DNA of 64,000 nucleotides, taken from a virus. Position numbers and translations under genes: made by a program. The stretch lies in the IMG/VR virus record IMGVR_UViG_3300024496_000012; one strand, 5' to 3'. The notes beneath the pieces were generated by a model that saw only the letters and a list, made by a program, of their open reading frames with translations, ran no database searches and was not told the origin of the DNA. Shown in pieces: positions 13,642 through 32,355 of this stretch. The first letter of the stretch is position 1; each line of letters opens with the position of its first letter.

Positions 13642-13653
13642 TGGGAAGAGAAA

Positions 13654-14514: not shown

Positions 14515-14521
14515 TCAGGAG

Positions 14522-14529: not shown

Positions 14530-14534
14530 ACACT

Positions 14535-15197: not shown

Positions 15198-15211
15198 TAT
15201 TAGACACGATT

Positions 15212-15240
15212 AAAAAGGGCGAATCGTACTCGCCCTTTTT
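15212..15240. terminator. Intrinsic terminator (possibly bidirectional)
   Basis: AAAAAGGGCGA-atcgtac-TCGCCCTTTTT perfect inverted repeat. Confidence 0.85.
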
Positions 15241-15264
15241 CTATGATCACTTAAAACAATGACC

Positions 15265-15271
15265 ATAAATA
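15265..15271 (+). promoter_or_regulatory. Late promoter core ATAAATA at the head of the enzyme island
   Basis: Lies between the terminator and ATG 15298. Confidence 0.6.
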
Positions 15272-15297
15272 GTTGACGTTAAACAAAGGGTTTTCTC

Positions 15298-16914
15298 ATG
15301 AATATTAAAAAAGTCGTTATAGTTGGTGGAGGTTCATCTGGGTGGATGACCGCTGCGGCATTATCTAAACTATGTCCACACCTAGATATCACATTAATAG
15401 AATCTGAAAAAGTAGGAACAGTCGGTGTAGGAGAAAGCACTTTAGGCCATATTAATAGATTTTTAAATATTCTAGAACTAAAAGACGAAGATTGGATGGC
15501 AGCTTGTAATGCTACCTATAAGAACTCTATTCGTTTTACTAACTTTAGAGAAAAAGATGGTTCGTATTTTGAATATCCCTTTAGTGCAGGACTAGATTTC
15601 ACCGATAAACCTAGTGGGTCAAATGCATGGTCAGAACTAGCAACACTATATCCAGATGAATATGGTCCCGAACAGTTTGCTCAAATGTATGCGACTGGCA
15701 ATACTTTCCTCGCCAAGTACAATCGTCAAACTAGAGACGAAGCTAGAGTTTTACGAAACTATGAGTTCAAGTGGGATACTGCTTATCATCTTGATGCACA
15801 GTTATTTGGTCAGTATCTAAAAGAAAAAATAGCATTGCCTAACGGTGTGAAGCATATGATCGGCGATGTACACTCCCACCAAAAAGATCATCTTGGCAAT
15901 ATCACACAGATCTTGTTGGCTGATTACACGACTACACTAACAGCTGACCTTTGGATTGATTGTACTGGTTTTAGAAGCATACTTCTAGAAAACTGGATGG
16001 GTTCTCAGTTTATTAGTTTTGAAAAATATCTAGCTAACGACAGAGCATGGGCATGTCGCATTCCTTATGAAGATAGAGAGCGAGAAATGCACAATGTCAC
16101 AGACTGTCATGCTCTTGATAACGGATGGGTATGGAATATTCCGTTATGGAATCGTATAGGTACTGGATATGTTTTTAGTTCGAGATTTATTTCGGACGAA
16201 GATGCTAAAAGAGAGTTTCGCAGACACTTAGCTACTACAGGTTCTAAAGAACGTGCTGATCGAGCCGACATGTTCCTAGTTAATATTAAGCATGGATATA
16301 GACGCCGAGCATGGGTAGGTAATGTTGTGGGCGTTGGTCTTAGCTATGGATTTGTTGAACCATTAGAGTCAACAGGACTTTTGACTACACATGAAAACAT
16401 CATTAAACTAATCGAAGCACTAAATCGAAGAGAAGGATATGTAACTAGATCCGAACGTGAAGGATTTAACTTTGCTGTACAACATGATGTTTTAAGATTC
16501 CGTGACTTTGTTTCACAACATTATGCTCTATCTAAGAGAACAGACACCCCATATTGGAGATGGTGTACACAGATAAACGAATATTGCCCAGAAGGAATGG
16601 GAGAGTTTATGTTACAGCAAGCCCAGTATCCAAATCTAATGGGCAATATTGCCATGGGCAATGCATATCCTAGCGACTATGTTGGTAATATGTTTATTGC
16701 TGCTGGCATGGGAGTCAAATCAACATCAACTAAAGAACTTGTTTATGTAACCGGCAGAGTAAACCAAGTATCTAAGATGGAAGAAATCGGATATACCAAG
16801 AGAAGGTACGAAGAATATAGAGATTTTGTCATTGATTATGTCAAGAAATGTCCAACGCACTATCAGTTCTTGTTACATGAAATCTATGGCGGAAAAGATG
16901 ACTACGCTCTGTAA
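15298..16914 (+). CDS. Flavin-dependent tryptophan-halogenase-family protein (Arg at the catalytic Lys position)
   Basis: GGGSSG FAD motif, GVGEST, ATYKNSIRF, WVWNIP, FVEPLESTG. Confidence 0.85.
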   Translation: MNIKKVVIVGGGSSGWMTAAALSKLCPHLDITLIESEKVGTVGVGESTLGHINRFLNILELKDEDWMAACNATYKNSIRFTNFREKDGSYFEYPFSAGLDFTDKPSGSNAWSELATLYPDEYGPEQFAQMYATGNTFLAKYNRQTRDEARVLRNYEFKWDTAYHLDAQLFGQYLKEKIALPNGVKHMIGDVHSHQKDHLGNITQILLADYTTTLTADLWIDCTGFRSILLENWMGSQFISFEKYLANDRAWACRIPYEDREREMHNVTDCHALDNGWVWNIPLWNRIGTGYVFSSRFISDEDAKREFRRHLATTGSKERADRADMFLVNIKHGYRRRAWVGNVVGVGLSYGFVEPLESTGLLTTHENIIKLIEALNRREGYVTRSEREGFNFAVQHDVLRFRDFVSQHYALSKRTDTPYWRWCTQINEYCPEGMGEFMLQQAQYPNLMGNIAMGNAYPSDYVGNMFIAAGMGVKSTSTKELVYVTGRVNQVSKMEEIGYTKRRYEEYRDFVIDYVKKCPTHYQFLLHEIYGGKDDYAL

Positions 16915-17692
16915 GAAACTGTTTGGCTGGTTAGGAAAAAATAAAAAAACAAAACCATACATAAGGTTTTATTCTTTAACTCCGGGTGTGGTAGATTTAT
17001 TTCCTATAGTTAGATCATCTACAGTAGAAAGACCGTATAGAAGTTCTCAGACCTACGAAGGTGTTCCTCCTAGCAAAAACTGTCCTGCTATCAATAAAAT
17101 AGTGGGTTCTGGATGGATCGTGCCTGCGCCTGCTGATTTTATCATAGATACTAATGGTGACGGAACAACGATCCAGTGGCTGGAACCTTATCGTTTTAAA
17201 AGATCTTCTGATATCAATGAATCTTCTTATGTAGTATTACACAGTTGGCATCAAACTGATCCGTTAGTCGATGATCCTGAAAAAACTGTCAGGACCGTAG
17301 TAAAGCTCGAAACACCTTGGCGTGTTGATATGAGCGATGATTATGTACTACTCCAACTTCCTGTTACCTATAACAAAGAAAGCCGTTTCACAGCAGCTAT
17401 TGGTGTGCTAGATCCAGAGTACGGATACACAGTAAATGTGCAACTATTTTGGAATGTCAAAGAAGGACGCACACTAGTCAAGGCAGGAACACCGTTATGC
17501 CAACTAGTTCCAGTTCTTAAAGATGCGTTAAGTCCTGGTTTTTATGATGTCATTATAGATAATGCCACAGAACAAGACCAGCTCAAAGATAGAGAGTTTA
17601 ACTATGCTGCTAGTTGTGTGATCTTAAATCACGATTCTCTAGGATCAAGATTGAGCAGATCGAAAAAAATACTTAATAAGTACAAAAAGTGA
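16898..17692 (+). CDS. Hypothetical protein, paralog of 31525..32355 (possible dUTPase-like/DUF6065-like fold)
   Basis: Start reassigned to MTTLCKK, overlapping the upstream stop. CPAI...G....APADF, ETPWRV, QLFW..EG.TL..AGTPL.Q.VP. Confidence 0.6.
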   Translation: MTTLCKKLFGWLGKNKKTKPYIRFYSLTPGVVDLFPIVRSSTVERPYRSSQTYEGVPPSKNCPAINKIVGSGWIVPAPADFIIDTNGDGTTIQWLEPYRFKRSSDINESSYVVLHSWHQTDPLVDDPEKTVRTVVKLETPWRVDMSDDYVLLQLPVTYNKESRFTAAIGVLDPEYGYTVNVQLFWNVKEGRTLVKAGTPLCQLVPVLKDALSPGFYDVIIDNATEQDQLKDREFNYAASCVILNHDSLGSRLSRSKKILNKYKK

Positions 17693-17702
17693 GGATACAA
17701 AC

Positions 17703-17954
17703 ATGGACTATAAAACGTCATTACAAGCAACACTAACCAATGTTCAAAAACAAATCGAGGACGGTAAAGCTGAACTCAAAAGATTAGAAGAAGAGTTTGC
17801 CAATGTCAAACTAAATCCCTATGGAATCACTTCTATCGATTTCGCAAAACGTCAAGAACTCAGCACAGATGTTCTAAAGATGGAAGGTGTAGTCATGGGA
17901 CTTCGACTAGCTCTTGAAACCTATGACGGAGTAGAAGCAGGTGCAACTATCTAA
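17703..17954 (+). CDS. Small coiled-coil hypothetical protein
   Basis: GAGG SD; helical heptad pattern. Confidence 0.6.
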   Translation: MDYKTSLQATLTNVQKQIEDGKAELKRLEEEFANVKLNPYGITSIDFAKRQELSTDVLKMEGVVMGLRLALETYDGVEAGATI

Positions 17955-18525
17955 TAATGGGGCGATACATCTATTTCCACCCCTAATATACAAGTTTGAA
18001 TACGAGTTCGATCAATCATATCTTAAACCTAAGATTGATGATTTATTTTCATTGGTGGAAATAAATTCTGATCTAGAAAAAGGCGCTGCGATATCAACAG
18101 TAAGTTTGGATCAGCGCCTTCAACCTCATACATGGCCTGAACTAGAACACTTCCAACACTGGTTGGGAGAAAAAATCGCTAACATCAGAGAAGAGCATCA
18201 GTTTTATAACGGCTATTCTGAAGTACAACGTAGCTGGTGCAATCGACATCTACGATCCGGATACACTCTAGAACACAATCATACGTTCGCCACTTGGGTA
18301 GCCAGTTGTTATTTTATGGCACCTGCTGGCTCAGGCAATATAGAATTTTTAGATCCTCTTGAATATCACAAGAGTAACTTTCCTGTTGTCCCTGAAGTAT
18401 CATTCTACAAAGAAGTCCAAGTAGCTACAAATAATGTTTTAATCTTTCCAGGTTGGATTAAACATAGAGTTCAGCCGAATAACACCGATCAGGAGCGTGT
18501 AGTAATCACGTTTAACATAAAATGA
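17941..18525 (+). CDS. Fe(II)/2OG oxygenase-like (TIGR02466-like, HxH)
   Basis: WCN.H...LEHNH...IFPGWIKHRVQPN...RVVITFN. Confidence 0.75.
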   Translation: MQLSNNGAIHLFPPLIYKFEYEFDQSYLKPKIDDLFSLVEINSDLEKGAAISTVSLDQRLQPHTWPELEHFQHWLGEKIANIREEHQFYNGYSEVQRSWCNRHLRSGYTLEHNHTFATWVASCYFMAPAGSGNIEFLDPLEYHKSNFPVVPEVSFYKEVQVATNNVLIFPGWIKHRVQPNNTDQERVVITFNIK

Positions 18526-19325
18526 AAGATTTTAAAATCTGTTATCCTGATGCCAACACATTTAAAGACATCATCAAACTTAAAAAAATAGATGACTGGA
18601 ATGTGGAATACCATCATCTTTCTGATGATATTGGCTATTGGACGGCAGATCATCCTTTTGAAACTGACGAACAGTTTTATCTTTTTAGAGATCTCATAGG
18701 AATGTTTCCTATACAGAAAGATAATAATCATCCAAAAAACTTTGATCCAAATCCTTTTGATACCATACATCTACCTGAATGGGTGTATTTAGATCTTTGT
18801 TTCTTAATAAGAGATTTTTATAAAATACACGGAACAGACGAGTGGCAAGATCCTCAGATACACGAATGGGGCAATATATTTCTAAGAGAACGCACCAGAC
18901 CAATAAGCTGCTGGAGACTACCTCACATTGATTATGTGTTTGGGATGGTCTCTAACTTATGGTTCACTGATCACAAAATAGAAGATAGCTGTACACGACT
19001 GTATAAGTATCATGGTAAGATCTACAACGATGTCTATGACTTTCAGTTAGACTTAGAGCATCCTATGAGAAAAGAATGGGAAGCACTATCACTTGAACCA
19101 AAACGTCTCGATAGTTGGATGAACGTTCCTGAAGAAGAGCTGAAGAGATGGGGGTTTGAACTAGTAGGAATGGCCCCAACAAGAGAAAAAACTATGACTT
19201 TGTACAAAGCTAATATATGTCACAGTGCTTGGGTGGGAGAAAATGTAGATTTTAGATGGAGTCATGCTTTTGCTTTTAGTCACGAACTACTACAACATAA
19301 GACGCTTAAGGATCTGTTTTCATGA
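18522..19325 (+). CDS. Putative Fe(II)/2OG oxygenase (HxD...H)
   Basis: LPHID...NLWF...LYKANICHSAW. Confidence 0.55.
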   Translation: MKDFKICYPDANTFKDIIKLKKIDDWNVEYHHLSDDIGYWTADHPFETDEQFYLFRDLIGMFPIQKDNNHPKNFDPNPFDTIHLPEWVYLDLCFLIRDFYKIHGTDEWQDPQIHEWGNIFLRERTRPISCWRLPHIDYVFGMVSNLWFTDHKIEDSCTRLYKYHGKIYNDVYDFQLDLEHPMRKEWEALSLEPKRLDSWMNVPEEELKRWGFELVGMAPTREKTMTLYKANICHSAWVGENVDFRWSHAFAFSHELLQHKTLKDLFS

Positions 19326-19948
19326 ATCTAGAACTTTACTTTCCTACGCCCGTTTGGTGGGAGGACACCACCATCGATCCTGCACCAATGCTAGAGCTGT
19401 TAACAGAACTCAAAGAAAAAGATCCATACGGTCGCAGACTCAGCAACGAAGGAGGCTGGCAGAGTATGGATTTTAGACCCGGACTTTACCCTCAAATGAA
19501 GGCACTTGAAGATAGATTAATGGAACAGGCTAGACAATGTGTCAGAGATTATGGATATAAAGAGAGCTTATGTTTTCCTTTAATCGAAAACTTCTGGTTT
19601 AATGTCAACGGAAAGCACCATACTAACATGGTACACACACATGATAATACGTTTATAGCAGGAGTATTTTACCTCAAGGCATATCCAGGACAAGGAAAAA
19701 TAACTCTGTTTAAAGAGTATTCTCAGGATTATGTAATCGCTTCACAGGCGCCCATCGAACAATATAAACATATTAGTGCTAGTGCTATTAGTTTTGATCC
19801 AGTAACTAGCAGACTTATTTTATTTCCTGGTGCATTGCCACACGGTGTAGGAGCAAACACTACCGACGAAGACAGGATATCTGTTTCGTTCAACATAAAG
19901 ATGATAAGAAATGACGATGAAAGAATTAGGATTCAGGTTATTGAATGA
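19322..19948 (+). CDS. Fe(II)/2OG oxygenase-like (TIGR02466-like)
   Basis: WFNVN...VHTHD...GVFYL...LFPGALPHGV..N...DRISVSFN. Confidence 0.8.
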   Translation: MNLELYFPTPVWWEDTTIDPAPMLELLTELKEKDPYGRRLSNEGGWQSMDFRPGLYPQMKALEDRLMEQARQCVRDYGYKESLCFPLIENFWFNVNGKHHTNMVHTHDNTFIAGVFYLKAYPGQGKITLFKEYSQDYVIASQAPIEQYKHISASAISFDPVTSRLILFPGALPHGVGANTTDEDRISVSFNIKMIRNDDERIRIQVIE

Positions 19949-20654
19949 GACTAATCTTCTTTATGAAGATAAGCCTCATTATTTTAAAAATCTACTTCCA
20001 GAAGCTTCAGAAATGGTCACATGGAACGATGTGGAACATTGTTTTAATAGACCAGAGCTGTATAACTTTGAGATGATAGGCCCTGACAATCTTAAAATCG
20101 AAATACCTATGAATAAAAAAGCATGGGTATTTTCTAAACCTGTACAAGACAAAGCCTTTATGTTTGAAAATATCAATAAAGGCAACGGATTTGTTATCAT
20201 GGACTACGCATTCTACAGTGAAAAAACTATAGAACTCATGCGTACATTAGAAAATATATACATGGTAAACTCTTGCATACACGTCTATGGCGGCTTAGAA
20301 GGTTCAAAAAGTTTTTGGATACACGAAGACTATCCTTCAAACTTCATATTCCAAGCATGGGGTAAAACTCGTTGGAAGGTGTTTAACAACAGGATTTCTA
20401 CCATGTATCGAACAGGTACTATGAATCATCAGTTAACTGAAGATATGTTGGACCTAGCATTTGATGTGGTGCTAGAACCCGGAGATGCAATCTACATTCC
20501 TTCTAGGATGTATCATATAGCGTACCCGATGGGTCCTAGATTAAGCATGAGCGTTCCTTGTTGGACAAAGTTACCTACTGACGAACCTAAAGAATCAAGT
20601 GATAGAAACTGGTATAAGATAAATCATGAAAGTATTCAAACCAATAACGATTGA
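19911..20654 (+). CDS. JmjC/Cupin_4-like oxygenase
   Basis: SFWIHED...FIFQAWGKTRWKV...LEPGDAIYIPSRMYHIA. Confidence 0.75.
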   Translation: MTMKELGFRLLNETNLLYEDKPHYFKNLLPEASEMVTWNDVEHCFNRPELYNFEMIGPDNLKIEIPMNKKAWVFSKPVQDKAFMFENINKGNGFVIMDYAFYSEKTIELMRTLENIYMVNSCIHVYGGLEGSKSFWIHEDYPSNFIFQAWGKTRWKVFNNRISTMYRTGTMNHQLTEDMLDLAFDVVLEPGDAIYIPSRMYHIAYPMGPRLSMSVPCWTKLPTDEPKESSDRNWYKINHESIQTNND

Positions 20655-21216
20655 TAATCTTGTTGAAAAGCAATATCAAGATGAGATTTATAGACATCTA
20701 ACTGATGTAAAGTTCCCTTGGGCGTTTATGGCCGATGCCACAGATGAGTTTGGGCATAATAACTCTGCGTTAAACGGACCCACGCCGTCTTTTGGTCACT
20801 TGGCGTATTGGAATCAACGAGATGAAAATCCATCTATTGATTTTTACAATCCACTGTTAACTGCTATACAGGAAAAATTCAATATACAGATGACCGGTCT
20901 GTTAAGGATACGGGTGGGTTTTCTATTAAACACATCATATTCTTTACCTAGTATGCCGTATCGTCATAATAAACCCCACCAAGATTATGATCAAGATCAT
21001 TTTACCTTAGTCTACTACGTCAATGATACAGACGGTGACACTGTTATTTTCCATGAAACTAGACCTTCTGAAAAATATTATTCACTAGAAAAATGCAGTC
21101 CAAAGAAAGGACGGGCAATATTATTTGACGGCAGACATTTCCATGCCAGCACATGTCCTAAGATGTTTACTACTAGGATAGCTATAACTATTAACTTTCA
21201 AGGCTTGCCGCAATGA
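20626..21216 (+). CDS. Fe(II)/2OG oxygenase
   Basis: PHQD...LVYYVNDTDGDT...PKKGRAILFDGRHFHAS..P...R. Confidence 0.8.
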   Translation: MKVFKPITIDNLVEKQYQDEIYRHLTDVKFPWAFMADATDEFGHNNSALNGPTPSFGHLAYWNQRDENPSIDFYNPLLTAIQEKFNIQMTGLLRIRVGFLLNTSYSLPSMPYRHNKPHQDYDQDHFTLVYYVNDTDGDTVIFHETRPSEKYYSLEKCSPKKGRAILFDGRHFHASTCPKMFTTRIAITINFQGLPQ

Positions 21217-21920
21217 GTAAAGATCATGTCGATTATCTAATGCGTATGCAGAAAAAAAGTGCTGCAGATATAAGAGAAGGTGACCTAAAAAATAGATTCC
21301 TTTATCCTTTCTTTCCTACTATAGTTATAGATAACTTCTACGAAGACCCAGATTTGATTCGAGAGTTTGCTCTTGATCAAGAGTTCTTTAAAGGCAATAG
21401 AGGTAGTTGGCCAGGGCTGCGTACAAAACTGTTACACGAACTAGATACTAATATGTTTAAGTTTGTCTCTAGAAAACTAATGTTCACTCTACGTGAATAT
21501 GGAATAAGAGATTACGAAGAAATACAGATAGGATTCCAGTTAATCGACGAAAGCTACGGCAGGGGTTGGGTGCATGACGATGATCCTAAGCTACACGTAG
21601 CAGGTGTAGTTTATCTTAATAAGGATGCAGGCGAAAACTGCGGAACTACTATCTTTGAAGATGCTCCTGACTTTAATGGTGAAGAATACAGTGAAATGTT
21701 TATGAAAGATGTATTATTATCTACACCAGAAGAACGTGCCGCTATGTCTAAGTATAGAGAGGAACAAATAAATTATTTTAATCCTACAATAAAAATAGAA
21801 AGTATTTATAACAGGATGGTTATGTTTGACAGTCGATGCTGGCATGCCGCAGATTACTTTTTTGGAACCGATAAAGAAAGTTCTAGATTAAATCAAATAC
21901 ATTTTTTGAGATTGAGATGA
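21213..21920 (+). CDS. Fe(II)/2OG oxygenase-like (DUF6445-like)
   Basis: IDNFYEDPD...WPGLRT...WVHDD...AGVVYLN...YNRMVMFD...WHAA...RLNQ. Confidence 0.7.
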   Translation: MSKDHVDYLMRMQKKSAADIREGDLKNRFLYPFFPTIVIDNFYEDPDLIREFALDQEFFKGNRGSWPGLRTKLLHELDTNMFKFVSRKLMFTLREYGIRDYEEIQIGFQLIDESYGRGWVHDDDPKLHVAGVVYLNKDAGENCGTTIFEDAPDFNGEEYSEMFMKDVLLSTPEERAAMSKYREEQINYFNPTIKIESIYNRMVMFDSRCWHAADYFFGTDKESSRLNQIHFLRLR

Positions 21921-22531
21921 TTAGAACAGTGAGACAACCCTTTAAGATAGTTGATGATTTTTTTGAATGTCCTGATCTGTGGAGATACCATGCTCTTAAG
22001 CAAGAATATACTACAGATGAACAAGCAACATGGCCTGGCGTAAGATCTACGGTTCTCGATCAGATCAATGAAACTCTTTTTCATTCGCTGGCATCAAAAA
22101 TAATCGTGCATTGTCCAGGAAAAAGGTACTTCCATTATCTTAAAATCAACTATGCCCTAGTTGATGAAAGTTACAATCTAGGTTGGTGTCATGTCGATGA
22201 ACCAAAATATAATGTAGCTGGAGTTATATTTTTAAATCCCGATCCTCCCAAAAACAGTGGAACAATATTTTATAAAAAAACAAAAGAAATGATGATTGAT
22301 TTTAATCAATTATTTTTTAACGAGTTAAAGGCTGCTCCGGAAGATCGAAAAGATTTTTATAAACACAAGCTAGAACAACGAAGTCATTTTAAAAAATCAA
22401 TGACTGTAGAAAATGTCTATAATAGATGTGTCATATTTCCGCCAGACGAGTGGCATAGCGCAGACAGTTATTTTGGCAATGACAAAGACAGTGCTAGACT
22501 AACAATTAACTTTTTTGGATTTGCTGCATGA
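21917..22531 (+). CDS. Fe(II)/2OG oxygenase-like, paralog of 21213..21920
   Basis: VDDFFECPD...WPGVRS...WCHVD...AGVIFLN...YNRCVIF...WHSA...RLT. Confidence 0.7.
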   Translation: MIRTVRQPFKIVDDFFECPDLWRYHALKQEYTTDEQATWPGVRSTVLDQINETLFHSLASKIIVHCPGKRYFHYLKINYALVDESYNLGWCHVDEPKYNVAGVIFLNPDPPKNSGTIFYKKTKEMMIDFNQLFFNELKAAPEDRKDFYKHKLEQRSHFKKSMTVENVYNRCVIFPPDEWHSADSYFGNDKDSARLTINFFGFAA

Positions 22532-23145
22532 CAGCCATGTTTGGGTCATTTGCCAACTACGGATTTATCAAAGATACACTTCCGAGTCAGTTATTTGCTG
22601 ATTTAAAAAGTGAAATAGATTCTATTGATTTTGAAAACAGTGAAAAATTTAATCAGCATCTTGCAGGAAATATAAAGTTCGAGTTCAAGCTAGATAAAAA
22701 CAAAAAATCTCTAGAAGAATATGTGGTATCGCTCTGTAAGCAATACAAAGAAGCTTGGGATTTGAGACATACTAGAAAAGATCTTGGTAATGAAAATCTA
22801 GAGCTACAGAGCTATTGGGTTAACTTTCAACGCAAAAACGAGTTTAATCCTATGCACACTCACGATGGCCTGTTTAGTTTCGCTATATGGGTCAAGGTTC
22901 CTTATAGATTCCAAGATGAACTACAAGAAAGCCATGTTAGAAATACCAACATGCCCAGGGCAGGAATGTTTTCTTTCATATATACAAACATATTCGGAGA
23001 AGTAAGAGAAGCAGAGTTTCCTGTAGACAGCACATTCGAAGGACAAATATTTTTATTTCCTAGCTGTTTACCACATACAGTTTACCCTTTCAGCACTTCA
23101 GACGAATATAGAATATCAATATCAGGAAACATACATGCCAAGTGA
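22528..23145 (+). CDS. Fe(II)/2OG oxygenase-like (TIGR02466-like)
   Basis: WVNFQRKNEFNPMHTHDG...LFPSCLPHTVYPF...RISISGN. Confidence 0.8.
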   Translation: MTAMFGSFANYGFIKDTLPSQLFADLKSEIDSIDFENSEKFNQHLAGNIKFEFKLDKNKKSLEEYVVSLCKQYKEAWDLRHTRKDLGNENLELQSYWVNFQRKNEFNPMHTHDGLFSFAIWVKVPYRFQDELQESHVRNTNMPRAGMFSFIYTNIFGEVREAEFPVDSTFEGQIFLFPSCLPHTVYPFSTSDEYRISISGNIHAK

Positions 23146-24306: not shown

Positions 24307-24944
24307 TGGAAGATTATAAGATCATAAAAAATGCAGTTTCTAAAGAGCTCTGTGATTTTCTAGCACTAGAGTTTTCTATGATGGAAACTACCTGTAGGCA
24401 ACTATATCCTAATGCCAACCTTGCTGATCTTTGCGAAGGTACATTTGCTAGATATAGTCCTTTGATGTTTGAAGCACTGAGTGTACATCTAACACCTTTA
24501 TTGGAAAAAGAAGTAGGAAAAAAGCTATGGCCTACCTATAGTTATGCTCGCATTTACTATAAAGGAACAGAGCTACAGCGTCATTTTGATAGACCTAGTT
24601 CAGAAGTAACAGTATCAGTATGTATACAACCTGGCGAAGTTTCTTGGCCTATATACATCAAGAACGAGCAAGGCACTGTACACGAGATTCATCTAGATCA
24701 AGGAGATCTAGTAATCTACAGCGGTAGGAGACATGAACACTGGAGAGAGCCATATACAGGCGAAAAGCAGATTCAGGCTTTTCTGCAATATGTGGATGCT
24801 GAAGGGGAAAGTTCCTGGTTGAAATGGGATACAAGACCTTGTTTAGGGCTACCGTTCGAGTGGACCAACCAGGAAATCCAGAACGAACTAAGACGTATTT
24901 CTGACGCTAAATCTTTTTTAGATAGGGTTATTCAACCCAAGTAG
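24303..24944 (+). CDS. Fe(II)/2OG oxygenase (PKHD-like type common in aquatic T4-like phages)
   Basis: PTYSYARIY..G.ELQRHFDRPS.E...GDLVIYSG..HEHWRE...QAFLQY. Confidence 0.8.
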   Translation: MMEDYKIIKNAVSKELCDFLALEFSMMETTCRQLYPNANLADLCEGTFARYSPLMFEALSVHLTPLLEKEVGKKLWPTYSYARIYYKGTELQRHFDRPSSEVTVSVCIQPGEVSWPIYIKNEQGTVHEIHLDQGDLVIYSGRRHEHWREPYTGEKQIQAFLQYVDAEGESSWLKWDTRPCLGLPFEWTNQEIQNELRRISDAKSFLDRVIQPK

Positions 24945-25137
24945 CATCTTTAGGTACGACTTTTTCTTCTAGCGGACCCATTGGACCTGCAACAACGTGT
25001 CTCGTTCCTGCATTTTGCTCAAACTTTTGCGAAGCGGCAGTTCTAGTATCTGCCTTTGTGTAGACTTCAAAAACGTGTAGAGCATGAGTTTCCGGATTTT
25101 CTTCATCTCGGTAAATCATTTTGTAAATTGCCATCAT
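24928..25137 (-). CDS. Small hypothetical protein
   Basis: AGGAG SD with ATAAATA upstream (25152-25158, minus strand); overlaps the convergent gene by 17 nt. Confidence 0.6.
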   Translation of the reverse strand: MMAIYKMIYRDEENPETHALHVFEVYTKADTRTAASQKFEQNAGTRHVVAGPMGPLEEKVVPKDATWVE

Positions 25138-25154
25138 AATCTCCTATACAATAT

Positions 25155-26714
25155 TTATGCGGTATGTTGTATCCATTCCTCAATAGACCAGCACTGATCT
25201 ACGAGGTTTTTATATCTTTGCAGATTAATATTTAGTACTTTTTCACCCGATGAAAGCAAGTTTTCAGGTACTCTAGCAGAGTCTGCTACTCTAAACTTAT
25301 CTATTCCTTGGATCACCATCATCCAAGCTACAGGACTGTAAGCTCTAGGCCACGGTTCAGCGATCAAACCTTTATAAAACTGTTCCCATTCTTCCAGCTT
25401 AACTCTAAGGCTATCTCGTGTCCTATGTGGTTCTTCTCTAAATCTACGCCAGAACTCGGTATCGTTTCTATTACCATGATAATGAAGTGCGATAAAGTCG
25501 GCAAAATCTTCAGTCAAGAACCATATTTTATCATTCATGCGTTGTACTACTTCGGGGTTAGTATTCTTCCTTAAAGGATCCCAATAGTCTTGTACTGCAT
25601 ACAAGGTTTCGACTATAAGTGCTATTCCGTTGGCTTCTAATGGTTCAACAAACCCACTGCTAAGACCAATAGCGAATACATTGTTTTTCCATACATTTCT
25701 CATCGCACCTGGTTGATATTTTAGATTTGCTATAACATCTATTTTTTTATTAAATCTTTTTTCAGCTTCTTGGTGAGCTTGTTCTTTGCTGATAAGATCC
25801 GGATCAAAAATGTATCCGTTGCCAGATCGATGCTTGAGATTTATATTCCAAGACCAGCCATATTCCATAGCTGTAGCATTAGTGGTTACACAATAACAGG
25901 GTTCGTCCCACCAACCAATCACTTCTCTTTGAGGAAAAGTATCAGTCATATCCACTAATGGTTCTTTTAAAACTTTTCCTAATAATAATCTTGCAAATCC
26001 AGAACAATCGAAAAACCAATCACCAGTTACTTCTCTATCTCCGTCGAGTTTTAACGAAACGATATTTCCTCTTTCATCTTGTGAAGCTGAAAGAAACTCT
26101 CCTTCTATGTGATTAACACCACGTGATAATGCTGTCTTTTTAAAATATGCAGCCGAATCTCGAGATTCAAAATGCCACATAGGTATGCAAGGCAAAGAAG
26201 TTAGATCACCGCCGAAAGGAACTTTCTGCTGTCTAATAAACTCTCCTGCAAAAAACGCTTTCCATAACGGTGTATTGTTTCCTAAAAGTGTTTTTAGGTA
26301 CATGTTCTTGGCGCTTTCTTGCTTCATTATGTCTGACAGTTTGCGCATAGTAAGAGCGTCTAGCGGATTTGAGCCGATGTGATCAGTCCAACCGTCGAGC
26401 CAAGGTGCAAAATCAGTCTGCATAGCATGTATAAACTCTGTACCTACACCGTTCCAGTCAGTGAACTTACCGCCCATCTTGGGAGTAGCATTTACATTTT
26501 TAATAAAATCATCGTCATCTATTTGCAAATGACGCAAGAATGTTCGATGTGTAGTGCTGCCACTTTCCCCTGCAATAATAGGAGGACGCTTAGGATCTTC
26601 TATCAACGATACGTCGCAACGTGGCCAGTTTCGTTTTATAAAAAGAGCTGTGAGCCAACCTGCGCTACCACCGCCTAAGATGATTATCTTAGAACTTGTA
26701 TTGTACATTATCAT
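25155..26714 (-). CDS. Flavin-dependent tryptophan-halogenase-family protein
   Basis: GGGSAG, AGESG, ATPKMGGKF, WSWNIN, FVEPLEANG; start may be 26708. Confidence 0.8.
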   Translation of the reverse strand: MIMYNTSSKIIILGGGSAGWLTALFIKRNWPRCDVSLIEDPKRPPIIAGESGSTTHRTFLRHLQIDDDDFIKNVNATPKMGGKFTDWNGVGTEFIHAMQTDFAPWLDGWTDHIGSNPLDALTMRKLSDIMKQESAKNMYLKTLLGNNTPLWKAFFAGEFIRQQKVPFGGDLTSLPCIPMWHFESRDSAAYFKKTALSRGVNHIEGEFLSASQDERGNIVSLKLDGDREVTGDWFFDCSGFARLLLGKVLKEPLVDMTDTFPQREVIGWWDEPCYCVTTNATAMEYGWSWNINLKHRSGNGYIFDPDLISKEQAHQEAEKRFNKKIDVIANLKYQPGAMRNVWKNNVFAIGLSSGFVEPLEANGIALIVETLYAVQDYWDPLRKNTNPEVVQRMNDKIWFLTEDFADFIALHYHGNRNDTEFWRRFREEPHRTRDSLRVKLEEWEQFYKGLIAEPWPRAYSPVAWMMVIQGIDKFRVADSARVPENLLSSGEKVLNINLQRYKNLVDQCWSIEEWIQHTA

Positions 26715-28197
26715 TCCTTTGTTTTATCATTTCGATAGCTTCTCTATGAGTATAGAATGTAGCATTTTGATCGTGCCATTTATCACCTTCGAATAATTCC
26801 TTTTGAATAACAGTATCATATCTATTTTTCATATGTTCAGACCATTTTTTATTCAAGGATTCAGTGTCAAACATACCAAGTCCGTGCATTACCTGCATAA
26901 AGTTTAAATGTCTAAACAGGAGCATTTCACTTTGAAAATAGTGAGTATGTACACCATGCTTTTTAAAGAATGACATATTCTCCCGATTAAAATCAGTGTA
27001 CTTGATATTGTTATTAACCCACTGCCAAAACTCACTGTCGTTTCTCTTTGTAAAATAATGTAGCTGTATGAAATCGACTATGTTTTCTGCTATTTCAGAC
27101 ATCTGCTTATTATAGATCTCTTCAGCATGTGTATCGCCTTTCACATAATAATATAAACTGGGCAAGAGTAGGAAAGTCTGTTGGATAGTGGTACCCATAC
27201 TAGATGCTTCTAGTGGTTCTACAAATATCCCACTAAGCCCAGTCATTACACAGTTTTTTATCCAAAACTTTTCGACATGACCTGCACCAAACTTTATCTT
27301 TTTTCCTATTTCTATGTTGTCTGAGATTCCTAGTTGTTTATAGTGTTGGCTAACCTCATCATAGGCTTTAGTTTCGTCAATAAAACTATCACAGAAAACA
27401 TAACCGTTGCCAAACCTATCCTGGGTAGGAATACGCCATACCCACCCACTGCTCAGTGCCGTAGATTCTGTATAAGAAGGAATATGTTCTTGGTATGCTG
27501 TAGGAAATGCCAGCGCAGAATTTAATGGTAGCTGATCAGTCTTATCTAGCCATTTGGCATCTAACTTGCTACCAATAATTCTTCTAAATCCTGAGCAATC
27601 AATAAAAAAATCAGCAGAATGTCTTTGACCATCGTTGCCGACGAGTTCGCTGACATATCCTTGTTCGTCTAAAACTACATCGTCAATCTTAGTATCAACT
27701 AGTTCTATTCCGCGTTCAGCGCACAGATCATGGAAATATTTGTTTAGTTTAAATGTATCAAAATGATACTGAGCTAGACTGTCATGCAATGGTTCGGAAT
27801 GCATACTGTTCATGCTTTTTTTATAAACAGTGTCTAAAGGATCAAAGTTTTCAGCGATTAGCTTTTCCAGAGTATACGGAATGCCATTGAATCTACTGTG
27901 GGTTCCAAACTGCTCTGCCAGACTATGGAAATAATGCTTGCCATCTCCGTTCCAGTTTGTAAACTTGATACCTATTTTAAAAGTTGCACCGGTATTGCGC
28001 ATCATATCAAACACAGATATGTCTGCCTGTTTCATGAATCTTTTCCAATGCTCGGTACTGCCTTCTCCAACGCCAATGATTCCTAGTGCAGATGATTCAA
28101 TCATAGTGATTTTTAAATCAGGCCAACCGCTCTTCAGCATCAGGGCACTAATAAGACCGCTGGTTCCACCGCCTAAAATTATTAAAGATTTTATCAT
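26689..28197 (-). CDS. Flavin-dependent tryptophan-halogenase-family protein
   Basis: GGGTSG, GVGEGS, ATFKIGIKF, WVWRIP, FVEPLEASS. Confidence 0.85.
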   Translation of the reverse strand: MIKSLIILGGGTSGLISALMLKSGWPDLKITMIESSALGIIGVGEGSTEHWKRFMKQADISVFDMMRNTGATFKIGIKFTNWNGDGKHYFHSLAEQFGTHSRFNGIPYTLEKLIAENFDPLDTVYKKSMNSMHSEPLHDSLAQYHFDTFKLNKYFHDLCAERGIELVDTKIDDVVLDEQGYVSELVGNDGQRHSADFFIDCSGFRRIIGSKLDAKWLDKTDQLPLNSALAFPTAYQEHIPSYTESTALSSGWVWRIPTQDRFGNGYVFCDSFIDETKAYDEVSQHYKQLGISDNIEIGKKIKFGAGHVEKFWIKNCVMTGLSGIFVEPLEASSMGTTIQQTFLLLPSLYYYVKGDTHAEEIYNKQMSEIAENIVDFIQLHYFTKRNDSEFWQWVNNNIKYTDFNRENMSFFKKHGVHTHYFQSEMLLFRHLNFMQVMHGLGMFDTESLNKKWSEHMKNRYDTVIQKELFEGDKWHDQNATFYTHREAIEMIKQRNDNVQYKF

Positions 28198-29693
28198 AGT
28201 TTATATTCCACCGTATTGCTGACCATCGCTTTGACTTTATTTACAGCTTCTCTACAGGTCAGCCAACCTTCTGTAGGTGTATTCTCGAATCTAGATAGAT
28301 ATTCTTCGTCGTCTTTTCTCAGGTATCCGTATCTTTTTTCGAATAGATTTTTTATACTAGCGGTGTCAAACATGCGTAGACCGTGCATGACCTGTATCCA
28401 GTTTAGGCAATCATAGATCCTAAAGTTACTCATAAGACCGTCTTCAGGTAACAGTATTTGATTAACAAAGTTTTTCTTAAAGTTTTCTAGATTTTCTTTG
28501 TGAAAATCAGTCATGGTCATTTCATTTTTGCACCAGCGCCAGAACTCTGTGTCATTGCGTTCGGTGAAATAGTGCAGTTGTATAAAATCGAGTATGTTTG
28601 ACATCATATCGTCGACTGTGTGATTATATTCTTTTATGCTAGACTGATCTTCTCGGGTCCAGTTCCATAGTGCGCCTGATAATAGTTGCAGTTGTTTTAT
28701 GGTCGTAGATATACTAGAAGCTTCTAACGGCTCTACAAAGTTGCTGCTAAGACCTATGCTCACGCAGTTTTTAATCCATGCACGATTGACCTTACCTGAT
28801 TTAAAGTTAATCTTGCGGCCTATCTTGATGGTATCCTTGAAGTGTTTTTGTATTTCAGACACTGCTTGGTCTTCAGTAATAAAATGATCGCTGAAAACAT
28901 AACCGTTACCAAAACGATCCTGCACAGGACTACGCCAATGCCAACCGCTGTTCATGGCTTTAGCGAGGGTGTAGGGGGGAATCTTTTCTTCATAGGACGT
29001 CTGGAAAGCTATAGCAGAGTTCAATGGCAGGTATTTGCTCCAGTCGATCCATTCTGCTCCTAGGTCAGATGCTATAACTCTGTTGAATCCACTGCTGTCT
29101 ATGAAAAAATCAGCAGCATATCTATTACCTTGATCGTCAATCACAGACTCAACAAAGCCTTGTTGATCTAATATCGGTCCTTTGATTTCTGCATCTATGA
29201 CTTTTATTCCCGAGATAGCACAACGATCTCGCAGATAGTTATTGAGTTTTTCACTGTCAAAGTGGAACTGATAATAATCTGTCAGAGGTTCTCTGACATA
29301 TCCTTGCATGGGAAGATCCCAATGCAAGTTTTCGCTGGAAACTCCGTCGCCTATGAGTCTCATCATAGAGTAAGCAGCACCTGAGTATCTATTCATATTG
29401 ATTAAGTACTCAGGTAGACTATGATAATAGCTGGTACCGTCACCATGCCAGTTTTCAAACTTAATGCCTACTTTTATTGTAGCTCCGCAGTGTACCATTA
29501 GATCGCCTATGGTGATTCCCACAGCCTGAGCGAATCTAGTCCAGTGTTCAGTACTGCCTTCGCCGACGCCGATAGTACCTATCTTTTTAGACTTGATAAC
29601 AGTGATATCCATCTCAGGAAATGAACTCTTGAGATATAATGCCGACATGTATCCGGCGTTTCCGCCTCCTAGTACAATAATATCATTGATCAT
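28194..29693 (-). CDS. Flavin-dependent tryptophan-halogenase-family protein
   Basis: GGGNAG, GVGEGS, ATIKVGIKF, WHWRSP, FVEPLEASS. Confidence 0.85.
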   Translation of the reverse strand: MINDIIVLGGGNAGYMSALYLKSSFPEMDITVIKSKKIGTIGVGEGSTEHWTRFAQAVGITIGDLMVHCGATIKVGIKFENWHGDGTSYYHSLPEYLINMNRYSGAAYSMMRLIGDGVSSENLHWDLPMQGYVREPLTDYYQFHFDSEKLNNYLRDRCAISGIKVIDAEIKGPILDQQGFVESVIDDQGNRYAADFFIDSSGFNRVIASDLGAEWIDWSKYLPLNSAIAFQTSYEEKIPPYTLAKAMNSGWHWRSPVQDRFGNGYVFSDHFITEDQAVSEIQKHFKDTIKIGRKINFKSGKVNRAWIKNCVSIGLSSNFVEPLEASSISTTIKQLQLLSGALWNWTREDQSSIKEYNHTVDDMMSNILDFIQLHYFTERNDTEFWRWCKNEMTMTDFHKENLENFKKNFVNQILLPEDGLMSNFRIYDCLNWIQVMHGLRMFDTASIKNLFEKRYGYLRKDDEEYLSRFENTPTEGWLTCREAVNKVKAMVSNTVEYKL

Positions 29694-30298
29694 TATTTTA
29701 TGTCCAAGGTGATTTTCGAATCAGTAGCAAGATTATGATTGATCCGACCACTAGGAAATGTGTTAAAACTTATAATATATCGATCGTTGCTCAGTATGTG
29801 AGGCTCGCTCATATGATACAGCCAGCTAGGAAAAACTATTAACTTTCCTGGAGTGGCCACAGACCTATACCAAGGACTAAAATCATGTCTTAGTACTTCA
29901 AGTTCTGATTCAGTCCTATGCACTTCAGGATCTTCAAAGATAGTTGCGCTGCCTTCGGTCATGTAATAGACCGCACTGAACATGCTCATAGAATGTTTAT
30001 GATAGTTTTGATACATGTTGTAACCGCTGAGTGCGACGTTGAACCAACTGTTTGTTATCACTATCTTGTCGCAGTCAAATTTCTGTGCCACACGTATTTC
30101 TTCTAGGCATGCATCGAACCAATCAAACAGTTCTTTGAAATCTGCTTCTTTACGTAGATCGTATAGGATACTAATCGTGGTGGTTCTTTTTATTTCAGTG
30201 CCATTAAGCACTTTCATCTTTTCGATAAGGGCCTGATTATCGATAGATTTGTTTTCAAAAACGAAAACTTCTGTAGGAAAAAGCTGTAGTGTCTGCAT
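29693..30298 (-). CDS. Fe(II)/2OG oxygenase-like (TIGR02466-like)
   Basis: SWFN...YHKHSMS..SAVYY...PGKLIVFPSWLYHMS...RYIISFN. Confidence 0.8.
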   Translation of the reverse strand: MQTLQLFPTEVFVFENKSIDNQALIEKMKVLNGTEIKRTTTISILYDLRKEADFKELFDWFDACLEEIRVAQKFDCDKIVITNSWFNVALSGYNMYQNYHKHSMSMFSAVYYMTEGSATIFEDPEVHRTESELEVLRHDFSPWYRSVATPGKLIVFPSWLYHMSEPHILSNDRYIISFNTFPSGRINHNLATDSKITLDIK

Positions 30299-30889
30299 TT
30301 ATAGTTCAATCCAACCAGTGAGTAGATATTTTTCGCCGCTCAATGGTGGATTGCCTCTGTGTGTATGGGTGAAAGCCGCTGGCCATATGACTAGATTTCC
30401 CTGTATGCTAGGTATCCTAATGCCTTGATACAGCCATTCTGTTTCGCCACCTTGATCTACAGTGTTTAGATAGCACCCCCAGGCAGCTATTCTGCCGGCA
30501 CGATCCATGTTATCAGATTCAAAATGCCATTGATGATACCCTTCTCCGGGAAGAGTTTTTTGTAGCTTTATCATGCGTATGTGAAAATGTCCAACGTCAT
30601 CTAAGATACTGTAATGTGATACGTACTCGCTCCAACAGGCCCATAGTCTATCAACAAAATACTTGATATAACCTGTATTTGCTGTTAGTCTTAGACTGTT
30701 TTCCTCTAAAAGAAAACTAGCTTTATCTTTTTTCTTATGTGCTATTCCGTCTCGAAGATCTAACCTGCTGTAACTGAGATTAAGATCTGCCATTCGATTA
30801 TAATGATCGATGAGAGTTTGGCATTCTTCAGCTGTCAGAACGCCCTCGAATGTAGCTATATCTTTTTCCAGTTTCATAGGTATTGTCAT
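30299..30889 (-). CDS. Prolyl-4-hydroxylase-like Fe(II)/2OG oxygenase (HxE)
   Basis: GEGYHQWHFE...YLNTVDQGGETEW...VIWPAAFTHTHRGNPP..GEKYLLTGW. Confidence 0.85.
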   Translation of the reverse strand: MTIPMKLEKDIATFEGVLTAEECQTLIDHYNRMADLNLSYSRLDLRDGIAHKKKDKASFLLEENSLRLTANTGYIKYFVDRLWACWSEYVSHYSILDDVGHFHIRMIKLQKTLPGEGYHQWHFESDNMDRAGRIAAWGCYLNTVDQGGETEWLYQGIRIPSIQGNLVIWPAAFTHTHRGNPPLSGEKYLLTGWIEL

Positions 30890-30934
30890 CGTACAGTACT
30901 ATATATCTAAGCAGATTATTACAAGAGACTTATA

Positions 30935-31528
30935 ATGAATGTAGAAAAATCAATATGGCCGCTGTTTTCAAAACCAGTTTTTAGGACCGGAGTAGATGTA
31001 TCGGGTGTGGATTTAACCAGCATAGAATGGTTGCCAAACTACAATAACTGGATCAGTAAAGATCAAAATGTACTAGAAAAACCCGAGTTTGAAAAACTAG
31101 CTCAAGGAGTATACGACGGAATCTGCGAATACTTTTATGGTGTTATGCGAGCCAATCAACGTATAGAGATCGCTATCACTGAAAGTTGGTTTAATAAAAC
31201 AGAAAAAGGTCAAATACATCACAGACATTATCATCCCAACAGTGTGTTTTCTACAGTGCTTTATCTGCAAACTGAAGGGGAATCGGGTCAGACTAAGTTT
31301 ATAACCAGCGAATACCAGTTACTGGAGTATGACATTGACGAATCCAACATCTATAACTCAAAGAGTTGGAGCCTTACACCTAAAGTCGGAGAAATGTTGA
31401 TATTTCCTAGCAGCATGGAACATATGGTCACTGAATATCAAGGAAACGTTCCTCGTATTAGTCTGGCTGTAAACACTTTTATCAAAGGGCAGATCAACAC
31501 CATGCCCTTGACCAAACTACATCTTTAA
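30935..31528 (+). CDS. Fe(II)/2OG oxygenase-like (TIGR02466-like)
   Basis: ESWFN...HHRHYHPNS..S.VLYL...GEMLIFPSSMEHMV...RISLAVN. Confidence 0.8.
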   Translation: MNVEKSIWPLFSKPVFRTGVDVSGVDLTSIEWLPNYNNWISKDQNVLEKPEFEKLAQGVYDGICEYFYGVMRANQRIEIAITESWFNKTEKGQIHHRHYHPNSVFSTVLYLQTEGESGQTKFITSEYQLLEYDIDESNIYNSKSWSLTPKVGEMLIFPSSMEHMVTEYQGNVPRISLAVNTFIKGQINTMPLTKLHL

Positions 31529-32355
31529 ATCTTATTTTTAGGATATTTTTTACGGAAGAAACTAAACAGATCCGTAATCACACGCATCTTATTTCCTACA
31601 CTGTCTGATCTAGGAAATCTACTGTGATTAGAAAAAGTATAGGCATCTTCTATTTCTTCCTCGACTGGTCCTGCAACATCAACAATAAAATCTACACCGT
31701 TTTGTTCTACTAGTTTTCTGCTAATAGGGACATATTGTACCAATGGAGTTCCGGCGCGAATCAGTGTATCGCCTTCTAGCACATGCCAAAACAGTTGTAC
31801 GCTTACGGCATGCATGTACCTAGGATCAACGATTCCTGTAGCTGCTGTAAATCTAGCTTCGTTGTCATAACTAACAGGAATCTGCAATAGTAAAATGTCA
31901 TCGCTGGCCTTTACACGCCATGGAGTTTCTACTTTTACAGCACTGTGTAGATGGGGGCGATCTGTGTTAGGTATTTCTTTAGGTATTAATGGTTCTGTCT
32001 GTGCAGGACTATGCCAGCTTACATAATAATCAGTGCCGCCGAATGTATATTTGTCACTGTGCCGCTTAAACAAGAAAGGAGTTTCCCAGCTTAGGTGTTC
32101 GATGCTAGGACCTGTTTTGATGACAAAATCTGCTGGAGCCCTAAGAACATACCCAGTTCTAGTTAGCTGCTTGATAGCCGGGCAGTTTAACACCGTTTGA
32201 CGCCCTTGTTCTGGGCGGTTTCTTTCGGTATTTCCTAGCCCATTCCAATCTCTGTCTACTAGTTTAGACTGTGTGACTGGGTAGATCGCAGCAACATTCT
32301 GATCTAGACTATAGAATCTTACCCAGCTTTTTTTCTTTTTAAACAGATTAAACAT
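31525..32355 (-). CDS. Hypothetical protein, paralog of 16898..17692
   Basis: Start reassigned to MFNLFKKK (TAAATA 5 nt upstream). VRFYSL, CPAI, APADF, ETPWRV, QLFW, AGTPL motifs. Confidence 0.65.
   Translation of the reverse strand: MFNLFKKKKSWVRFYSLDQNVAAIYPVTQSKLVDRDWNGLGNTERNRPEQGRQTVLNCPAIKQLTRTGYVLRAPADFVIKTGPSIEHLSWETPFLFKRHSDKYTFGGTDYYVSWHSPAQTEPLIPKEIPNTDRPHLHSAVKVETPWRVKASDDILLLQIPVSYDNEARFTAATGIVDPRYMHAVSVQLFWHVLEGDTLIRAGTPLVQYVPISRKLVEQNGVDFIVDVAGPVEEEIEDAYTFSNHSRFPRSDSVGNKMRVITDLFSFFRKKYPKNKI

Follow-up and report, generated by a model that had tools for sequence, protein, structure and literature searches.

What would a phage do with eighteen tailoring enzymes lodged between its fiber genes, and on what would they act? 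The question is raised by 64,000 nt of viral DNA from riverine metagenomes (IMG/VR record IMGVR_UViG_3300024496_000012; this whole stretch is called the window), of which positions 15298-32355 (the island) carry genes for four flavin-dependent halogenases, 14 oxygenases of the Fe(II)/2-oxoglutarate (Fe/2OG) type, two proteins with a predicted dUTPase fold, an 83-aa helical protein and a 69-aa open reading frame (ORF). In all likelihood, the island is the jumbo-phage version of the halogenase/dioxygenase module of cyanophage Syn9, that is, a fixed, purifying-selected, divergent and catalytically intact set of one VirX1-type halogenase, three BrvH-like halogenases and 14 oxygenases, each a separate conserved orthologue, which moves between lineages as a block together with Gly/His-rich fiber-tip proteins (G38) and a gp40-like protein. 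As for the substrate, we favor the phage's own fiber-tip proteins, with a probability of about 0.35-0.4, and rate this reading slightly ahead of a small-molecule product because of the two-way synteny and joint transfer of the block, the lack of genes for scaffold and export, the affinity of the JmjC and PF13640 members to protein hydroxylases, and the open trimeric architecture of VirX1.

ORF listing and Pfam scans confirmed the four halogenases and 14 oxygenases that an original prediction, made from the sequence alone, had counted. Its roughly 22 packed and overlapping ORFs are also present, and a 23rd, on the minus strand at 24928-25137, had been overlooked. The island and the genes immediately upstream are organized as follows; single genes are named below by their first coordinate.

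11918-12769, 12784-13641 and 13654-14514, plus strand: three tandem Gly/His/Tyr-rich fiber-tip paralogues (G38-like), PF21722 Gly_rich_2
14535-15197, plus strand: gp40-like protein, phrog_1787, 49% identity to Syn9 gp40
15216-15245 and 15265-15271, plus strand: intrinsic terminator hairpin with T-run, then ATAAATA, read off the sequence
15298-16914, plus strand: flavin-dependent halogenase, VirX1 orthologue, PF04820 E 3e-106
16898-17692, plus strand: protein with predicted dUTPase fold, gp43-like copy a, likely start ATG 16898 (the ORF opens at 16826), assigned from a model, 49% identity to Syn9 gp43
17703-17954, plus strand: small helical protein, gp44-like, 83 aa, 52% identity to Syn9 gp44
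17941-24944, plus strand: eleven overlapping Fe/2OG-type oxygenase genes, with starts at 17941, 18522, 19322, 19911, 20626, 21213, 21917, 22528, 23135, 23737 and 24303
24928-25137, minus strand: 69-aa ORF, conserved, having ATAAATA and AGGAG of its own
25155-26714, 26689-28197 and 28194-29693, minus strand: three tandem flavin-dependent halogenases, PF04820 E 1e-86 to 5e-106
29693-30298 (PF13759) and 30299-30889 (PF13640), minus strand: two oxygenases heading the minus-strand operon, assigned by Pfam
30935-31528, plus strand: oxygenase PF13759 (E 2e-21), divergent from the minus-strand operon
31525-32355, minus strand: second protein with predicted dUTPase fold, gp43-like copy b, 37% identity to copy a and 47% to Syn9 gp43

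This arrangement has a published counterpart. In Syn9, ten tandem dioxygenases, one of them of the MINA/NO66 type, neighbor a pair of tryptophan halogenases along with a dUTPase-fold protein in which a cysteine is conserved, and this cluster was interpreted as a pathway of secondary-metabolite synthesis (Iyer et al., 2010, PMC2938197). All three traits of this neighborhood recur here, namely a divergent dioxygenase array including a JmjC member, a 5' halogenase with a dUTPase-fold Cys protein, and gp40-gp54 collinearity. Over positions 11918-24944, the window is collinear with Syn9 gp38-gp54, with gene-by-gene identities of 31-56% and two local rearrangements (the gp47 and gp53 orthologues are placed later). 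As in Syn9 and Syn10, gp38-like fibers, which in Syn9 are Gly-rich proteins annotated as "tail fiber assembly", and gp40, a halogenase, gp43 and gp44 precede JmjC and 2OG oxygenases that end with a gp54-like gene. Compared with Syn9, however, the island has three G38 copies, a main operon of 11 oxygenases where Syn9 has 10, a terminator plus ATAAATA inserted ahead of the halogenase, and an extra inverted arm made up of three halogenases, three oxygenases, a second gp43-like gene and the 69-aa ORF; its phage is also riverine and has a different backbone. The density of enzymes, which had been taken as unusual, is not unprecedented, since Syn9 has 10 dioxygenases and two halogenases in the same arrangement (PMC2938197) and S-SCSM1 carries 24 2OG oxygenases genome-wide (PMC9602691). 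S-CREM1 has a dense array of 10 2OG oxygenases. Because the cluster type and its lead enzyme are already published, the island is a new, enlarged member in another phage lineage.

Related enzymes also occur in other settings. In bacterial neighborhoods, JmjC and gp52/gp54-like oxygenases are found with one to three tryptophan halogenases, SapC, TonB receptors or nonribosomal peptide synthetase (NRPS) genes (PMC2938197). Unlike the island, these neighborhoods have no fiber, gp40-like or dUTPase-fold genes, and Pfam scans of the island detected neither SapC nor a TonB receptor. The jumbo cyanophage cluster of S-SSM6a and P-SSM2, with a carbamoyltransferase, a halogenase and 2OG/cupin enzymes, was proposed to decorate polysaccharides or to make a metabolite (Iyer et al., 2021, PMC7824862). 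It resembles the island in joining a halogenase to 2OG or cupin hydroxylases in a phage, but its carbamoyltransferases, HemK-like methylase and HAD phosphatases were not detected in the island by Pfam or PHROG.

The core genes in the window tell a different story from the module. TerL is closest to that of PA5oct (53% identity), Phosso and Atu_ph07; it shares 63% identity with the TerL of an IMG/VR contig of 278 kb, for which a completeness of 75% is estimated, and 33% with that of Syn9. The sheath protein is 36% identical to its Syn9 counterpart, in the C-terminus only. These comparisons point to an uncultured jumbo phage with a PA5oct-like backbone, not to a cyanophage. Since the module is about 50% identical to that of Syn9 and the core proteins only about 33-36%, the block, fiber genes included, has moved between backbones. 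Paralogues within the island share only 23-46% identity, which excludes a recent tandem amplification and makes the island an assembled set. No near-identical DNA was found among 50,697 phage records, and an Rfam scan of 14-34 kb gave no match.

How tightly are the enzymes bound to the fiber genes? The original prediction had named a comparison of enzyme content and fiber genes across relatives as a check, and this was carried out from both sides. With a gp43-like profile, 137 relatives were detected in IMG/VR, 80 loci were fetched and their ORFs were classified against the window proteins; a reciprocal search with G38 gave 155 relatives, of which the best 80 were kept. G38, then the gp40-like gene, lies directly upstream of the enzymes in all gp43-found loci with sufficient flank (43/43), and a halogenase/oxygenase cluster lies downstream of G38 in all G38-found loci with at least 3 kb of flank (58/58), so that enzyme content and fiber genes are indeed correlated. 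The recurring order begins with a giant fiber, a small fiber protein, three G38, the gp40-like gene, one or two halogenases, gp43, gp44 and 10-11 oxygenases in the same orthologue order; it continues with two or three opposite-strand halogenases, more oxygenases, a second gp43-like gene and further fiber genes. The gp40-like gene invariably sits between G38 and the halogenase, and two gp43-like copies per contig are found in relatives as well. In the collection of 50,697 phage records, G38 (13 records), gp40-like (20) and gp43-like (14) proteins occur only in cyanophages having a JmjC/oxygenase cluster, and adjoin that cluster. This coupling was not found stated in the accessible literature on these clusters. 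A variant is seen in two IMG/VR loci, L125 and L134, which have gp40, one oxygenase and four tandem same-strand halogenases; the stretch retrieved showed no pair of gp43 and gp44.

In the window itself, genuine fiber or virion genes (PHROG, Pfam) stand on both flanks, as had been predicted. Besides G38, these are:

1019-10798, plus strand: giant tail-fiber protein, 3259 aa, phrog_9851 tail fiber E 7e-156, ATAAATA at 992, kept upstream of the module in relatives
32444-33265, plus strand: fiber-like gene, PHROG tail-fiber match, ATAAATA at 32413
33286-39654, plus strand: virion structural protein, 2122 aa, phrog_5838 E 6e-237

The G38 proteins match PF21722 at 29-34 bits (cut-off 24.3) and are 47-51% identical to Syn9 gp38. 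Their AlphaFold model is of moderate confidence (pLDDT 78), and Foldseek matches it to the Pam3 cyanophage fiber 7ypx (E 2e-7), the Bxb1 tail tip and the glycine-rich domain of ALK. Judging from the family match and the predicted structural likeness, G38 is a genuine polyglycine-II fiber-tip protein. The invariant residues include five His, three Tyr, Pro and Arg, and a Trp is near-invariant; the His-rich loop is the low-confidence portion of the model. No collagen G-X-Y repeats were found in the G38 sequences.

Are the enzymes themselves likely to work? All four halogenases match PF04820 (Trp_halogenase) at 291-356 bits against a gathering cut-off of 21 (E 1e-86 to 1e-106). The flavin adenine dinucleotide (FAD) motif GGGxxG (GxGxxG), the catalytic-lysine motif (N/G)ATxK and FVEPLE(S/A) are present in every one of them, and the WxWxIP motif is canonical in 15298 (GWVWNIP) and 26689 (GWVWRIP) and variant in 28194 (GWHWRSP) and 25155 (GWSWNIN). 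By motif, all four are catalytically intact. The 15298 protein aligns over its full length with VirX1 (PDB 6qgm, E 5e-200), with which it shares ATYKNSIRF, GWVWNIPL and FVEPLESTG, the lysine of ATxK included; it is 56% identical to Syn9 gp42. VirX1, the flavin halogenase of cyanophage Syn10, is a trimer with a large, open and accessible active site and a preference of I > Br > Cl (PMC8407142). Its activity has been shown by experiment. A review assigns VirX1 to no biosynthetic gene cluster (PMC8407142), yet its gene sits within a Syn9-type cluster. The three minus-strand halogenases are 28-46% identical among themselves; 28194-29693, the only one of them searched against structures, has BrvH (6frl) as its nearest solved structure.

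Ten of the 14 oxygenases score above the Pfam gathering threshold. PF13759 is matched by 17941, 19322, 22528, 29693 (minus strand) and 30935, PF13640 by 20626 and 30299 (minus strand), JmjC_2 by 19911, and DUF6445 by 21213 and 21917. The other four were placed by different means. Sub-threshold in Pfam, 23135 corresponds to Syn9 gp53 by orthology, is a paralogue of 20626 (E 2e-19) and falls in the same PHROG; hhalign places 23737 with the PF13759 proteins (81%, E 1e-5). For 18522 and 24303, the Syn9 orthologues are gp46 and gp54, HxD...H...R is conserved, and further support comes from a PHROG match or an Atlas lead, that of 24303 pointing to 2OG oxygenase clusters with a score of 0.90-0.98. 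Since hhalign relates the families of these two to the other island oxygenase families at just 9-10% probability, both are described here as putative Fe/2OG-type oxygenases.

Metal ligands are at least 95% conserved across the 9-43 orthologues of each oxygenase family. HxD...H...R is kept in the families of 18522, 19911, 20626, 21213, 23135 and 24303, while 30299 has HxE and 21917 has HVD. The six PF13759-type proteins (17941, 19322, 22528, 23737, 29693 on the minus strand, and 30935) keep HxH...H...R, not HxD/E...H, which suggests a possible three-His metal site; their only solved relatives are the uncharacterised structural-genomics proteins 2rg4 and 3bvc (nearest for 30935). The JmjC/ROX-type protein 19911-20654 is 54% identical to Syn9 gp49, and its nearest solved structures are NO66 and YcfD. 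It has the same JmjC_2 catalytic core as the ribosomal oxygenases NO66, MINA53 and YcfD; unlike them, the 247-aa protein is devoid of both dimerisation and winged-helix domains. NO66 is a His hydroxylase and YcfD an Arg hydroxylase, and PF13640 is the prolyl-4-hydroxylase-like family; two oxygenase types at least thus fall into families of protein hydroxylases. Virus-encoded collagen/prolyl hydroxylases, such as PBCV-1 P4H and mimivirus L230, are precedents for viral hydroxylation of structural proteins.

The kinship of the JmjC and P4H-like members to protein hydroxylases would also suit enzymes acting late in infection on the host envelope or on host proteins, whether to prevent superinfection, to aid lysis or to change receptors on debris. 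We consider this unlikely, and it explains the coupling to G38 and gp40-like no better than modification of the virion does; signal peptides and domains for envelope targeting were not seen, no search aimed at them having been made. Another idea starts from the cosubstrate. The oxygenases would chiefly drain 2-oxoglutarate and thereby shift the nitrogen-status signalling of the host, as proposed for cyanophage 2OG oxygenases (Sullivan et al., 2010, PMC3037559). For the island this is hardly credible: burning 2OG needs no fourteen divergent orthologues, each conserved in fixed order, the halogenases and the fiber coupling are unexplained, and the backbone is not that of a cyanophage, so that the NtcA logic need not hold.

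Could the product be a small molecule? Successive hydroxylation and halogenation of a host amino acid, indole or peptide-like metabolite would then yield an antibiotic, a signal or a siderophore-like compound, and we regard this as a serious contender, if short of probable. Such a pathway was put forward for Syn9 by analogy to cephamycin-type pathways and from the bacterial NRPS/TonB/SapC neighborhoods (Iyer et al., 2010, PMC2938197). The action of VirX1 on free aromatics in vitro, the position of BrvH as nearest solved relative of the inverted-arm halogenase 28194-29693, a weak Atlas lead from 24303 to the HalD/BesD amino-acid enzymes, and the fixed order of distinct conserved enzymes, as in a multistep pathway, all point the same way. 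However, Pfam and PHROG scans of the island ORFs bore out the reported absence of a scaffold synthase (NRPS, polyketide synthase [PKS] or ribosomally synthesized and post-translationally modified peptide [RiPP]) and of a flavin reductase, and found no ligase, carrier protein, methyltransferase, transporter/exporter or immunity gene either. None of the island ORFs shows the hallmark of an NRPS/PKS/RiPP cluster, be it a scaffold synthase or a precursor peptide whose core is conserved. A small-molecule product also leaves unexplained why the enzymes are coupled to G38 and gp40-like in 43/43 and 58/58 loci and have been transferred between backbones together with them; the late-type promoter motif described below is common to virion genes, and a lytic jumbo phage has scant time to gain from an antibiotic.

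The gp43-like proteins raise the possibility of yet another substrate. Their model (pLDDT 92) is matched by Foldseek to dUTPases with TMt values of 0.6-0.7 at 10-15% identity, which supports a dUTPase fold. They have an invariant Cys and, of the dUTPase motifs, retain residues like those of I, III and IV (APADF, GILDPxY, QLFW). If they bind a pyrimidine-type nucleotide, the enzymes might modify bases or nucleotide-linked substrates, and the retained motifs can be cited for this, together with one gp43-like family that stands beside QueD-like and radical-SAM genes without halogenases, and with 6-azaindole as a VirX1 substrate with reported kinetics (PMC8407142). Nevertheless, nucleotide chemistry is very unlikely: motif V of dUTPases is absent from the gp43-like proteins, a site among late fiber genes is atypical for DNA-modification genes, the 29-kb Syn9 stretch examined has no Que genes, and Pfam detected no TET/JBP or AlkB-type family in the island.

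Outside phages, only three gp43-like matches were obtained in 185,579 cellular genomes, all with the phage halogenase-gp43 module, and the two longer of these loci also have G38 and the gp40-like gene; the family is essentially phage-only. The locus L084 (NZ_RMVE01000006.1, a 188-kb contig of Nonlabens xiamenensis 1Q3) has three G38, gp40, gp43, two halogenases and four oxygenases. Most likely this contig represents the genome of a T4-like phage that was co-assembled, and it is possibly a host clue for one branch of the module. The gp43-like proteins are not strictly tied to the enzymes, since in IMG/VR loci such as L052, L059 and L079 a gp43-like gene stands beside giant fiber genes and neither a halogenase nor an oxygenase lies within 10 kb. 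Its neighbors in L059 are QueD-like, radical-SAM, "endonuclease" and fiber genes, a mixed context that is not interpretable. Complex prediction for the VirX1 orthologue and the gp43-like protein gave a median ipSAE of 0.37 (runs 0.00, 0.37 and 0.48; best control 0.00), with contact agreement of at least 0% and partner pLDDT of at least 74. In the benchmark, 58 of 80 solved complexes came up to the mark, as did 2 of 110 mismatched pairs, values of 0.60 or below coming from 7 of the 80 and from both mismatches; the result is weak and is not used as support.

The other accessory proteins are less telling. The gp44-like protein (17703-17954), for which no Pfam or PHROG family was found, always follows gp43-like within the main cluster of relatives. 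Atlas matches gp40-like solely to a "Gp40 family" of viruses, and its leads to XkdW and Caudo_TAP_N are weak. The 69-aa ORF is conserved in about 30 loci, with a conserved 53-aa body and a variable, often absent C-tail, and (A)TAAATA precedes it in all distinct relatives (20 of 20); it has no match to a Pfam or PHROG family. It sits at the convergent junction after the last halogenase, and a contig piece covering 24.4-25.3 kb was present in all four RNA-library runs described below. A role as RiPP-like precursor was considered for this ORF and rejected, as the tail bearing W or F is variable and often missing and no family is matched.

When might the enzymes be made? The terminator and ATAAATA motif reported ahead of the island were found as described, with a hairpin at 15216-15240 plus a T-run, and ATAAATA at 15265-15271. 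Hairpin and motif are kept in 23 of 40 distinct spacers between gp40-like and halogenase genes, essentially all the spacers of about 100 nt of the jumbo clade; in the cyanophage versions, gp40 and the halogenase are only 12-45 nt apart. The T4-type late promoter consensus is TATAAATA, and this sequence is found 12 nt ahead of the gp40-like ATG. Within the island, ATAAATA occurs only twice, at 15265 (+) and 25152 (-). The window holds 10 copies for 18 expected, and the count of TATAAATA is not above chance either; because the total is below chance, the ATAAATA signal is positional only. Of these 10, eight are situated 5-30 nt ahead of gene starts, those of two fiber genes, the gp40-like gene, the first halogenase, the 69-aa ORF, and the genes of a head-tail adaptor, a tube-like protein and a sugar nucleotidyltransferase, and the SSB and UvsX genes are devoid of it. 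At the level of the motif, these elements would fit T4-type late promoters. At the head of the minus-strand operon, a GATATATAGTACT box is conserved in two or three relatives and is not enriched in the window. A scan for sigma-70 promoters found 66 for 62.5 expected, that is, no enrichment. Late expression of the island, as first claimed, is favored by the sharing of ATAAATA with structural genes and its retention in relatives, but the claim was overstated, the timing having been read from the motif alone.

In four riverine RNA-library (metatranscriptome) runs, island contigs were found at 99% identity or above; DNA carry-over is possible, and strand, ends and timing are not readable from contigs. 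Contigs of two RNA-library runs end at 15183 and 15203, close to the terminator.

Leader lengths in the window differ from gene to gene. At 14523, 43104, 49068 and 62498 (+), ATAAATA stands exactly 5 nt before the ATG (12 nt from motif start to ATG); if it is a T4-type -10 element, the corresponding late mRNAs would be leaderless or nearly so. Genes 1019, 15298 and 32444 have leaders of 20-26 nt with a Shine-Dalgarno sequence. Between the structural gene 41817-43142 (-) and the adaptor gene at 43116 (+), the spacer 43083-43110 holds back-to-back TAAATA-type motifs on both strands and resembles the box that heads the minus-strand halogenase operon (30895-30907). Further downstream, 60501-63960 holds sugar-nucleotide genes, for an epimerase and a cytidylyltransferase fused to a mannose-6-P-isomerase-type cupin, with ATAAATA at 62498; this is a second "tailoring" set with a late motif, near recombination genes.

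Returning to the fiber tips as substrate, gene content, intact motifs, orthology, synteny, and the terminator and promoter motif come from the analysis; timing, substrate and effect we infer as follows. Late in infection, the plus-strand operon and the 69-aa ORF, which are the ATAAATA units, would be transcribed alongside the fiber genes. With FADH2 from a host reductase, O2 and halide, the halogenases would modify Tyr, Trp or His side chains of the fiber tips; with Fe(II), 2-oxoglutarate and O2, the oxygenases would hydroxylate His, Arg, Pro, Lys or Asn side chains. The receptor-binding tips would thereby be altered in chemistry, metal binding or stability. In its strongest form, the proposal sees in the array a machine dedicated to the post-translational modification of the G38 polyglycine-II tips, so that the virions of a widespread aquatic phage group would carry halogenated, poly-hydroxylated receptor-binding tips; in this form it is conceivable, if doubtful.

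Decoration of virion or host proteins had been suggested at the outset, and the correlation with fiber genes and the conserved late-type element speak for it. Several points weigh against it. A modified residue has been observed nowhere and no virion protein has been shown to be modified; the virion proteome tables of S-CREM1 and S-SZBM1 hold no usable statement on gp38/gp40-type proteins. We know of no flavin halogenase acting on a folded protein, the known macromolecular cases being peptides. Accessory genes frequently settle beside fiber genes without functional reason. Fourteen distinct hydroxylases are many for a few small proteins, and the invariant His residues of G38 may instead be structural metal sites. 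In the jumbo clade, the fiber genes and the enzymes are separated by a terminator and the latter have their own promoter, and what heads the minus-strand halogenase operon is a GATATATA-type box and not ATAAATA. Through 24303, there is a weak Atlas lead to HalD/BesD-type enzymes of free amino acids. The toolkit is not intrinsically fiber-specific, as bacterial homologues occur with TonB, SapC and NRPS genes and without fiber genes, and the published reading of the Syn9 cluster is a secondary metabolite (PMC2938197). Finally, VirX1 halogenates many free small aromatics in vitro, with kinetics reported for 6-azaindole (PMC8407142).

The island brings no new enzyme type. It touches on two questions about 15 years old, namely what the many 2OG-Fe(II) oxygenases do in cyanomyoviruses and what viral flavin halogenases such as VirX1 naturally act on. 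What it and its relatives show is that inheritance and exchange of the enzymes take place in a single block with a Gly/His-rich fiber-tip protein and a gp40-like protein, across backbones as unlike as those of Syn9 and of a PA5oct-like jumbo phage. The label "auxiliary metabolic gene" can therefore be replaced by a concrete hypothesis, approachable in cultured phages such as Syn9, Syn10 and S-CREM1. If the fiber tips are not the substrate, a conserved viral pathway of 18 enzymes has a small-molecule product that is still to be found. If they are, the natural substrate of VirX1 would be identified and the hoarding of 2OG oxygenases by cyanophages explained; enzymatic halogenation would have its first case in a virion protein, by halogenases that act on proteins, and phages would have a new route to diversify or harden receptor-binding proteins.

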